From Candidatus Omnitrophota bacterium (GTDB lineage: Bacteria > Omnitrophota > Gorgyraeia > JAGLLT01): a stretch of DNA of 28,928 nucleotides. The stretch lies in NCBI GenBank assembly GCA_030630095.1, contig DAOVNW010000001.1:1-28928 (forward strand). Reading direction: 5' to 3'. The first letter of the stretch is position 1; every line of letters begins with the position of its first letter. Position numbers and translations under genes: made by a program. Under the pieces are notes generated by a model, which was given only the letters and a program-made list of their open reading frames with translations, searched no databases and was not told the origin of the DNA. This document shows positions 15,389-17,526 of the stretch, one piece after another.

Positions 15389-15533
15389 CTACGATTCTGA
15401 AATATCCCGAAGAACGCCTTGATTCTTGAAACTCTTACAGCCTAAGTTCATATAACAATACATACGAGCTTCGTAATTGTCATAAGTACCGCTTGAGTCT
15501 ATCTTCCTCTGGAACATTGACCCGTCCATATCC
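15389..15533 (-). CDS. Major capsid protein, exon 2
   Basis: After the intron's terminal G: G GAT ATG GAC GGG TCA..., giving (M)DMDGSMFQRKIDSSGTYDNYEARMYCYMNLGCKSFKNQGVLRDISES*, a capsid-type C-terminus. 145 nt plus 1178 nt of exon 1 make 441 codons in frame. Confidence 0.88.
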
Positions 15534-16348
15534 CACATTTGTTATGCTACTGCTACGGCATTTCTGCATAGCTCTGTATGTCGCCATACAGGTCGGACTA
15601 TCTCATCACTCTGATTACTCAGAGGCACATCGCACGAATCAACATAGCGTAAATTTAATTTATATTTCATTGAAGGAATTATATATGGAGTAATTATCTT
15701 AAATAACTTTTTAGCTTCTTCTGTCCCACAAGATAACTTCCAATATTGCCCTTTCTTTGAAACATTAAACTTAACACTAAATCTATCCTCAATTAAATCT
15801 CTAAGGATTTGATTTTCTTCAAGAGTGAAACCTTCCGTGTGTAAACTAATTCTTCTGGAAGATATACGATATACATGATGTTTGTTATATGATTTGCTGA
15901 AACATATTGACCCATCATCCATATACCAAAAAGCAAGCCCTTCATCAGTCAATCTCTTAACGAATTTAGCAAATTGTTTGCTTCTTTCTTTTAATTGAGT
16001 ATAAAGTGGGTGAATCCTTGTTGATACTGTTATACAATCATAGCCCCCACATTTTACCTCTGTTACTTTGACCTTTGTCAAAGCAGAAAGATAATCAGCT
16101 TTAAATTTTGCGTATTCGGCTTGCTTGATAGAATGTGTTATGCGAACACTGACATTTTTGCCTTCTTTTGCTTTTGCAAAACATGCATCGCCTAACCACA
16201 TTCCTATTACTCCGCCCTTGAATTTTCTAATTTTATGTTGATTCATAGTCTCTACACTCCTTACGCAGCTTGCGCAAGTTGGCACGGGATTGTCTCAAAG
16301 AGGTTTTCCCCGTTTTCGGATGTGTTTATACTGGACAGATTGTCGTTT
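15534..16348 (-). mobile_element. Group I self-splicing intron (815 nt, IA-like: ORF looped out of P7.1)
   Basis: P1 exon ACUGGAU/IGS GUCCAGU with U-G at the splice site. P10 GGAU/AUCU. P3 CACAUCCG/CGAUGUG. P4 ACGGG/CCCGU. P6a CUUGCGCA/UGCGUAAG. R element GUAGAGACUA and S element GAUGAGAUAGUCC (P7). P7.1 is 12 bp. P8 CUCUGA-GUAA-UCAGAG. P9 CUGUAUG-GCGA-CAUACAG. Terminal G at 15534. Confidence 0.93.
15542..16246 (-). CDS. Intron-encoded LAGLIDADG homing endonuclease (two-motif type), 234 aa
   Basis: Motifs GVIGMWLGDAC and EGLAFWYMDDGS, followed by 'ISLHTEGFTLEEN..L...I..RF.VKF'. Probable start is the ATG at 16246, with AAGGAG 10 nt upstream. Confidence 0.9.
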   Translation of the reverse strand: MNQHKIRKFKGGVIGMWLGDACFAKAKEGKNVSVRITHSIKQAEYAKFKADYLSALTKVKVTEVKCGGYDCITVSTRIHPLYTQLKERSKQFAKFVKRLTDEGLAFWYMDDGSICFSKSYNKHHVYRISSRRISLHTEGFTLEENQILRDLIEDRFSVKFNVSKKGQYWKLSCGTEEAKKLFKIITPYIIPSMKYKLNLRYVDSCDVPLSNQSDEIVRPVWRHTELCRNAVAVA

Positions 16349-17526
16349 ATCCAGTCGAAGTTAGACGCGCGGTAAATTGCTAAGAACCGCCTGTCTAAGA
16401 AGAACATTGTATTAGGCACACAATGCTTATCCACGATTAAAGGAATATAGTCGTTCCCGGCCTGATATGCAATAGCTTTCCAACCACCAACAAGGTCAAG
16501 AGGCTTTACATACCGTCTATCTGCCTGTAACAGGTCAATGTACATTTTACGTACACCGTATGAAGTTACAATCAGCATAGACTTGTTATCGCCGTTCTTA
16601 CCAGACGCTTTCTCTACAGTATCAAGAGTGTCCTGGATCAACTGTTCTGTAAGATCACGGTTCGTGTTTGAACCATGCAGAACATTAGCTTCCAGTATAG
16701 GATAAGTTGACCGACTCTTACCATGAATGGTCTGTAATCCTAACCCTAAGCCAAACCATGAAGAAGTTCCCTGAATACTATAGTTGTCTATAATATCCAT
16801 TAAACCATTCATTTCATAACCACGCGCGCCATATCTAAAGACATACTGATCAGTGGCCCATTTTTCAGCTGAACCTGAACTACCTGCATAAGTTTCAAGT
16901 TCAAACGTGGTAGAATCGGTGATCCCGCCTACCTGATGAGCTGTGGCTTCTGTCAGACCTTCTGAAATACCTTCATCCGATACAGCCGCGCCAGTAGTAG
17001 TATCTGGGAACGACTCTATGGGCATACCTTCTTCAAGCCACTGTGTGCCGGGTTTATCTACGGTAACTGTAGCATCCGCGCCGCCACCAGTACCATGAGT
17101 CATACAAAGAAACCCGGAAGCAGGTGAGAATAACTGACGGTTAGTGTCAATCTTCATACCCTCTACCATTGACTTGATTTCCATATCAACTACTTTAGCA
17201 AAAGCAGTCGCATTTTTCCGGGACGCTTTTATTGCCTGGCCTGAAAAAGCAACGGCTCCATAATTGTACATGAGAGGAATTGCCAACTGGATAGTTGTTA
17301 CATTCCGGGCTGTAGGCAATGGGCCGTTTTCAGCGCGAGCGCCTATTGCCTGGTTCCTGCGGGTCTTTATCGGAACATACGCTTTTAAATCCTCTCCAGA
17401 AACATCTTCTTCATTTTTACTTAACAACCGATAAGTAGGACTCAAGTTATTGAGCTGATCCATTATCGGGCCGTGGTAATCTCTTTTAAGAGCGCCACCT
17501 AATAAACTTACTGTTTGACCTGCCAT
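16349..17526 (-). CDS. Major capsid protein (HK97 fold), exon 1; spliced product 440 aa
   Basis: Follows portal and scaffold. RBS GGAGG. Capsid-like motifs 'LKRDYHGPIMDQLNN', 'GARAENGPLP', 'NGLMDII', 'LTEQLIQDTL', 'VDKHCVPNTMFFLD'. The ORF-track C-terminus after ...NFDW is intron read-through. Confidence 0.88.

Follow-up and report, generated by a model that had tools for sequence, protein, structure and literature searches.

The SU10-like major capsid gene of a podovirus-like cold-seep phage is very probably interrupted by a mobile group I intron of 815 nucleotides (nt), which holds a gene for a LAGLIDADG homing endonuclease. The gene lies on contig DAOVNW010000001.1, of which we analyzed positions 1 to 28,928 (a stretch of 28,928 nt, hereafter the window); unless another locus is named, coordinates refer to the window, and the capsid locus takes up positions 15389-17526 of its minus strand. 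An initial reading of the letters alone (here, the sequence-only reading) had placed a group I intron in the capsid gene, and this has been borne out by the core helices, by a match to the Rfam model RF00028 and by an intron-less allele that differs by exactly 815 nt. Splicing itself we infer from the sequence.

Three open reading frames (ORFs) follow one another on the minus strand, of 421 amino acids (aa) (17526..16261), of 234 or 247 aa (from a start at 16246 or 16285 to 15542) and of 49 aa (15538..15389). The first comprises 392 capsid codons and 29 intron-encoded ones up to a TAA stop at 16263-16261, and matches PHROG 14242 (major head protein) with an E value of 9e-39; the match to the Pfam family SU10_MCP is weak (18.1 bits, below the cut-off of 24.1). 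When the exons are joined (T16349 to G15533), 1323 nt are read in frame into a protein of 440 aa, with ...NFDWM^DMDGSMFQRK... across the joint (^ marks junctions and insertion points throughout), and the predicted ligated-exon junction reads ...GACUGGAU^GGAUAUGG... In an alignment with 30 homologues of 427-454 aa, this spliced protein is colinear up to the C terminus (...NFDWM-DMDGSMFQRKIDSS...), and it runs without a gap along about 30 intron-less homologues of 438-454 aa; the exon 2 product matches their C termini residue for residue, and the 29 read-through residues after W392 align to nothing. Capsid homologues share 25-73% identity with the window protein, and in five related viral contigs the gene is uninterrupted. 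The homologues are colinear over the predicted junction, which agrees with the earlier proposals that joining 16349 to 15533 restores W-M-D-M-D-G-S and that an intact capsid protein needs the intron removed.

The boundaries of the insert, and the same junction, are also fixed at the DNA level. Among public DNA contigs aligned to the locus, one from run X4, another sample of the same study, joins 15533 straight to 16349 with an unambiguous joint, skipping exactly 815 nt; an intron-less allele with exactly the predicted exon junction therefore occurs in nature, and the locus is polymorphic for the presence or absence of the insert. The insert is present in runs X1-X3 and both forms are found in X4, the intron-bearing form being dominant or sole in three samples at 8-28x depth. 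Identical locus DNA occurs in three independent public assemblies, its sources are all cold-seep metagenomes, and blastn with the whole locus as query found nothing in 50,697 phage records. As a separate observation, the intron-less contig of X4 has 8 mismatches along the 96 bases to the exon 1 side of the junction (16349-16444) and none along the 388 to the exon 2 side (15146-15533), an asymmetry that could stem from recombination, from a co-conversion tract beside the homing site or from a chimeric contig.

A structure model of moderate quality (predicted local distance difference test score, pLDDT, 66.5) was made for P0002, a homologue 73% identical to the window protein. It matches the HK97-fold capsids of Pa223, A-1(L), Mic1, SU10 and HK97, with E values down to 2e-11, and on this model the window protein is an HK97-fold, SU10-like major capsid protein (MCP). 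The insertion site falls in a loop ahead of three C-terminal beta-strands. The reading frames agree with the earlier statement that unspliced RNA yields a 421-aa product in which the last 48 capsid residues are lost and 29 intron-encoded ones take their place; since the missing residues hold the three beta-strands, loss of function is likely, and such a product would most likely be useless for assembly. Public gene calls in the three assemblies give proteins of 421, 234 and 46 aa, a mis-annotation that had been foreseen; by the frames and alignments above these calls are wrong and the true capsid protein has 440 aa, which is the practical point for this genome. The neighbors of the locus are a P22-type portal, a scaffold-like protein and a fiber-like protein, and the locus would therefore be part of the head module of a podovirus-like phage.

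Ribozyme core and endonuclease gene

The claim that all core helices are readable stands: every one could be placed in the insert (Table 1; a window coordinate is 16349 minus the intron position). An unconstrained minimum-free-energy (MFE) fold of the intron with its ORF deleted (positions 119-699 removed) recovers exactly the hand-assigned P1, P3-P6, ORF stem, P8, P9 and P9.1, and has a z score of -4.6 against shuffles; P7 is missing from this fold because it is knotted with P3. The ORF-loop stem, a long-range pairing between P7 and P3' that closes the loop with the endonuclease ORF, grows to 13 base pairs (bp) in the MFE fold. At the splice site, U16349 forms a U.G wobble with G16336 in P1, and the J8/7 segment UGAUGAG precedes the 3' strand of P7. 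RF00028 (Intron_gpI) is the only Rfam match in the window, at 29.6 bits (E value 2.4e-5 for the region and 5.8e-4 window-wide), and its best-aligned part is J8/7-P7-P9, the most conserved block of the model.

Table 1. Predicted features of the capsid locus, in window coordinates, with intron positions in brackets
Feature	Position	Strand	Details
Major capsid exon 1	16349..17526	minus	392 codons and AT of Met-393; PHROG 14242 match
Group I intron	15534..16348	minus	815 nt; first base A, next to the 5' splice-site U; last base omega G 15534
Major capsid exon 2	15389..15533	minus	G of Met-393, 47 codons, TAG stop; matches C termini of homologues
LAGLIDADG homing endonuclease gene	15542..16246	minus	234 aa; Pfam LAGLIDADG_2
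P1	exon ACUGGAU 16355-16349 with guide GUCCAGU 16336-16330 (13-19)	minus	7/7 pairs; in MFE fold
P10	AUCU 16340-16337 (9-12) with exon 2 GGAU 15533-15530	minus	4/4 pairs
P3	CACAUC 16324-16319 (25-30) with GAUGUG 15631-15626 (718-723)	minus	6/6 pairs
P4	16313-16308 with 16289-16284 (36-41/60-65)	minus	in MFE fold
P5	16302-16300 with 16296-16294 (47-49/53-55)	minus	in MFE fold
P6	16278-16272 with 16266-16260 (71-77/83-89)	minus	in MFE fold
P7	GACUAU 16250-16245 (99-104) with AUAGUC 15601-15596 (748-753)	minus	6/6 pairs
ORF-loop stem	GAAUCAAC 16244-16237 (105-112) with GUUGAUUC 15643-15636 (706-713)	minus	8/8 pairs across 593 nt
P8	15624-15609 (725-740)	minus	GUAA loop
P9	15591-15574 (758-775)	minus	GCGA loop; CUGUAUG/CAUACAG
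P9.1	15572-15552 (777-797)	minus	conserved loop CAGAAAUG; GCUAUG/CGUAGC
Omega G	15534 (815)	minus	last intron base; boundary set independently by the intron-less allele

The ORF within the insert begins at the ATG at 16246, 10 nt after a Shine-Dalgarno sequence (AAGGAG, 16262-16257). Its product matches Pfam LAGLIDADG_2 (PF03161) over positions 4-168 of the 168 of the profile (E value 1.4e-26, 93.9 bits against a cut-off of 25) and has both LAGLIDADG motifs (...MWLGDA... and ...WYMDDG...). Among solved structures, the closest are 6x1j (5e-10) and I-SceI (1.4e-7), whose WFMDDG aligns with the second motif, WYMDDG. A word-indexed protein search returned only the match of the protein to itself. 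In an exhaustive HMMER search, homologues (the best 150 of 2770) mostly cease to align at residues ~197-210, which places the last ~30 residues outside the conserved domain; these residues are encoded where the frame continues across P3', P8, P7', P9 and P9.1. Judged by its sequence, the endonuclease gene is intact and I-SceI-like, and cleavage and homing by its product we infer by analogy.

The UAA that ends the unspliced capsid frame (16263-16261) overlaps the Shine-Dalgarno sequence of the endonuclease gene (16262-16257), an arrangement suggestive of translational coupling when the RNA is unspliced. P7 contains the endonuclease AUG (16244-16250 region), and the Shine-Dalgarno sequence is in P6 and J6/7. 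A folded ribozyme would hide this start, and ribosomes arriving from exon 1 would expose it.

Related introns in other SU10-like capsid genes

The exhaustive search with the endonuclease led to a related intron at the loci L009 and L010, and a truncated capsid homologue (P0035) led to another informative relative, L023. The L009 intron (2611-3471; also found in L010) is 861 nt long and lies at the same DW^M codon position (..TGGAT^AAACG..) of a capsid gene whose product is 27% identical to that of the window; its endonuclease is 47% identical and occupies the same ribozyme position. All helices are retained in L009 with altered sequences, P4, P5 and P6 among them. At homologous places, P3 reads CACAUC/GAUGUG in the window, CCCUUC/GAAGGG in L009 and UUUCGC/GCGAAA in L023, so the pairing has been retained by compensatory changes. 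The L009 P7 (GACUG/CAGUC) differs from that of the window by a change from A-U to G-C, and its ORF stem, GGUUGCU/AGCAACC, pairs at 7 of 7 positions although it is wholly unlike the GAAUCAAC/GUUGAUUC of the window; P9 is CCUCACA/UGUGGGG and P9.1 is GGCAGG/CCUGCC. The introns and endonucleases of the two loci are far closer than the capsid genes that host them, which points to horizontal spread by homing at a conserved site.

The L023 intron (1859-2507, 649 nt, 39.8 bits in Rfam) lies 4 nt downstream of the window site, after DWMD (..TGGATGGAT^AGACC..), in a gene for a capsid 43% identical to that of the window. It retains P1, P3, P7, P8, P9 and P9.1, and its 3' domain is clearly homologous; P1 is formed by another exon sequence with a guide of its own, and still pairs at 7 of 7 positions. 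A different LAGLIDADG-like ORF is found upstream of P7, not between P7 and P3'. Pfam returned nothing for the long read-through ORF of this intron, and the LAGLIDADG-like motif was seen by eye in another frame. On this comparison, the DWMD codons are a hot spot for two introns, which differ in their endonucleases and are inserted 4 nt from each other.

Group I introns near the N terminus are found in further SU10-like capsid genes, among them those of L011 (252-1700) and L012; the L011 intron scores 34.4 bits in Rfam, and its core is followed by a LAGLIDADG gene with 41% identity. In L034 (oriented 12770-14034), a match to the SU10-like capsid begins directly after a core of the ribozyme class described below, also near the N terminus. 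The SU10-like MCP family therefore has at least three insertion sites, one of which is the DWMD codons with their two introns.

Splicing, mobility and alternative explanations

We propose that the late capsid transcript would be made as a precursor in which the intron RNA folds into a group I core. P1 would offer the U.G pair at U16349, and the active site would be built from P3-P8 together with P4-P6, P7 holding the guanosine pocket. The 5' splice site would be cut by an external guanosine, after which the terminal G15534 would take the place of the latter and the exons would be joined with the help of P10. The joined exons would encode the full 440-aa capsid protein and unspliced RNA only the 421-aa product. 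The intron-less site spans GACTGGAT^GGATATGGACGGG, and by analogy with other homing introns the LAGLIDADG enzyme would cut intron-less alleles at the conserved ...GACTGGAT^GGA... during co-infection, repair of the cut allele then copying the intron in.

Some points weigh against a functional intron. The group I model search that the sequence-only reading had proposed as a check gave RF00028 as the sole match in the window, but its score is under the curated gathering cut-off of 50 bits; at gathering thresholds Rfam returned nothing in the window and the group I match appeared only in a permissive search, plausibly because the ORF loop, which separates P7 from P3' by 593 nt, is too long for the model to bridge. 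A P2 helix was sought between P1 and P3 and none was found, P5 has just 3 bp, and in its first two bases the ORF stem is in competition with P7. The exon 1 frame continues into the intron for 29 codons, over the guide and P3-P6, and ribosomes on the heavily translated capsid mRNA could disturb the folding of the intron. Lastly, two look-ups of the runs that contain this stretch listed no RNA run.

The sequence-only reading raised the idea that splicing efficiency could gate head assembly. Splicing would then be rate limiting and co-opted as a control, with competition between ribosomes and ribozyme folding setting the amount or the timing of capsid and endonuclease. An exon 1 frame that runs 29 codons over P1-P6, the UAA overlapping the endonuclease Shine-Dalgarno sequence and the AUG within P7 all speak in favor of such a control. 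However, this layout is not conserved, the exon frame stopping after 10 codons in L009 and after 9 in L023. The presence of an intron-less allele in the same habitat implies that the phage does not need the intron, the authors of the work on the capsid intron of mycobacteriophage LittleE presumed very efficient splicing (PMC3706429), and selfish persistence accounts for all the data. We therefore regard a regulatory role as improbable.

Less probable still is that the insert no longer splices, being either a decayed intron or an endonuclease-gene insertion, with a capsid protein that is truncated or made in two pieces, or a genome variant that is defective. A reported parallel is the nrdA gene of Aeh1, which is split by mobE, and non-splicing endonuclease insertions have been described in phages (PMC7344957). 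The Rfam score below gathering and the empty RNA look-ups would fit this explanation, as would an in-frame ATG at 15538 that precedes exon 2. However, that ATG has no Shine-Dalgarno sequence upstream, and a 47-48-aa piece with three beta-strands of the HK97 fold is unlikely to assemble separately. The core helices are all intact, with compensatory changes in L009 and L023, and neither the J8/7-P7 consensus nor the terminal G is missing. The intron-bearing form is moreover dominant or sole in three samples (8-28x), and we consider a non-splicing insert very unlikely.

An intein or a group II intron can be rejected with near certainty: LAGLIDADG endonucleases are also found in inteins, but the insert is out of frame, with a stop after 29 codons and the endonuclease in another frame, no Hint domain was found, and for a group II intron there is neither a model match in the Rfam search of the window nor a reverse transcriptase.

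Known capsid introns and a wider ribozyme class

The classic phage group I introns with homing endonucleases are those of the T4 genes td (with I-TevI), nrdB and nrdD and those of Twort and SPO1. The window intron resembles them in its ribozyme core, in the endonuclease ORF placed in a peripheral loop, in the GNRA-capped P9 and in its predicted homing mobility. It differs in that their hosts are genes of nucleotide or DNA metabolism and their endonucleases are of the GIY-YIG or HNH type, whereas that of the window is a LAGLIDADG enzyme; in the window, moreover, the ORF loop is placed after P7 and before P3', with a frame that continues over P3', P8, P7', P9 and P9.1. The classic introns are also listed in PMC3706429.

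A closer parallel is mycobacteriophage LittleE, whose capsid gene has a spliced 819-bp intron with an endonuclease gene, as established by reverse transcription-PCR and protein sequencing (Pope et al. 2013, PMC3706429); a capsid-gene intron of Tuc2009 is cited in the same paper. Both the LittleE and the window introns are of about this size, with a homing endonuclease gene, and lie in the major capsid gene of a tailed phage; in both, U is the last base of the exon and G that of the intron, and an intron-less relative (Omega in the case of LittleE) defines the junction. In LittleE, however, the endonuclease is of the HNH type and its gene has the opposite orientation, the insertion lies close to the N terminus of the mature protein, the phage is a siphovirus with a high G+C content, and splicing is experimentally proven where ours is predicted.

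Group I introns have also been described in the MCP genes of crAss-like phages of the Delta and Zeta groups (Yutin et al. 2021, PMC7886860). As here, these are metagenome-derived phages with an MCP gene split by group I introns, some with LAGLIDADG genes, and with the same annotation problems. They belong to another lineage and another MCP family and often have several introns per gene; their identification was based on protein domains and drew on neither a ribozyme structure nor an intron-less allele (PMC7886860). With regard to the endonuclease, I-SceI and 6x1j ("probable intron-encoded endonuclease 1") are likewise monomeric two-motif LAGLIDADG proteins of ~235 aa, and the acidic residues of the second motif align. 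Their introns are found in organellar ribosomal RNA genes, whereas the predicted target in the window is a block of capsid codons, and significant alignment is confined to the C-terminal half.

Group I introns in capsid genes are thus already known, and there is no new mechanism here. The statement that a capsid intron is less usual holds for the classic textbook set, but not in view of the published capsid introns or of the host census given below. What makes this locus of local interest is the intron-less allele, the sharing of the intron by very distant capsid genes (27% identity) and the two-intron hot spot at DWMD; with both alleles in the same habitat, it is a clean natural case of intron mobility. 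This agrees with what is known of homing endonucleases, whose targets are the best-conserved codons of essential genes. The locus is also one more piece in the growing evidence that the capsid genes of uncultured phages are often intron laden, which affects capsid-based classification and gene calling.

A search pattern was built from the 3' domains of the window, L009 and L023 introns (UGAWGAKMYAGUCCGA-N22-30-GCAGAAAUG). Its signature is J8/7-P7 as UGAWGAKMYAGUCCGA, followed by P9 and then by the P9.1 loop GCAGAAAUG, and it was found in more than 113 viral and more than 120 metagenome contigs among the matches listed (L024-L256). Over 73 diverse members including the window, 95.9% of the cells of P9 and P9.1 pair, compared with 60.8% in shuffles, and 348 cells have changed on both sides, compared with 103. 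The observed values were reached by none of 500 shuffles, and slid controls pair at 27-48%. In the ORF-less members L067, L077 and L128, P4 and P5 are near-identical to those of the window. Between P7 and P3', where subgroup IA introns have the extra pairings P7.1/P7.2, there is one long-range stem in the window and L009, where most ORF-less relatives of the class pass straight across. These shared pairings make the window intron an unexceptional representative of a large class of phage group I ribozymes whose structure is conserved.

The hosts of the class were surveyed from the reading frame downstream of each member, de-duplicated to 73 frames. Major head proteins were the commonest identified host, accounting for at least 28 of the 73 frames and for eight PHROG families; the other hosts include ribonucleotide reductase, tape-measure protein, terminase and DNA polymerase, among others. 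This census is biased, because the pattern was derived from capsid introns and only the listed matches were counted, but even so capsid genes are, on these frames, a frequent home of the class. It is conceivable, although we would not favor it, that the class resides mainly in major capsid genes. If the excess were real and not a matter of sampling, capsid genes and not those of nucleotide metabolism would be the main reservoir of group I introns in environmental phages and the hub through which these are exchanged. A capsid-profile search of 235 class loci found an SU10-like capsid gene in L034 only, the remaining capsid hosts belonging to other MCP families.

Other searches were less productive. 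A 20-mer pattern for J8/7 matched no viral contigs, and a 16-mer pattern for the guide sequence matched 10, which we rejected as chance since none had an intron context. In cultured phages, the 112-nt 3' core gave only short core matches, for example to introns in RNA polymerase genes of Drulisvirus. Among cultured Drulisvirus-type phages, Klebsiella phage RCIP0039 (L257, 25833-27193) and Acinetobacter phage vB_AbaA_LLY (L258) have a class core flanked on one side by a truncated RNA polymerase coding sequence and a "hypothetical protein" and on the other by a second coding sequence annotated as "hypothetical" or "RNA polymerase", in what looks like an unannotated group I intron in a phage RNA polymerase gene. 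Two further loci, L081 (946-1313) and L095 (6521-7717), contain two class cores on the same strand, within ~300 nt and ~1.1 kb, respectively, and these are probably two neighboring introns within one gene.

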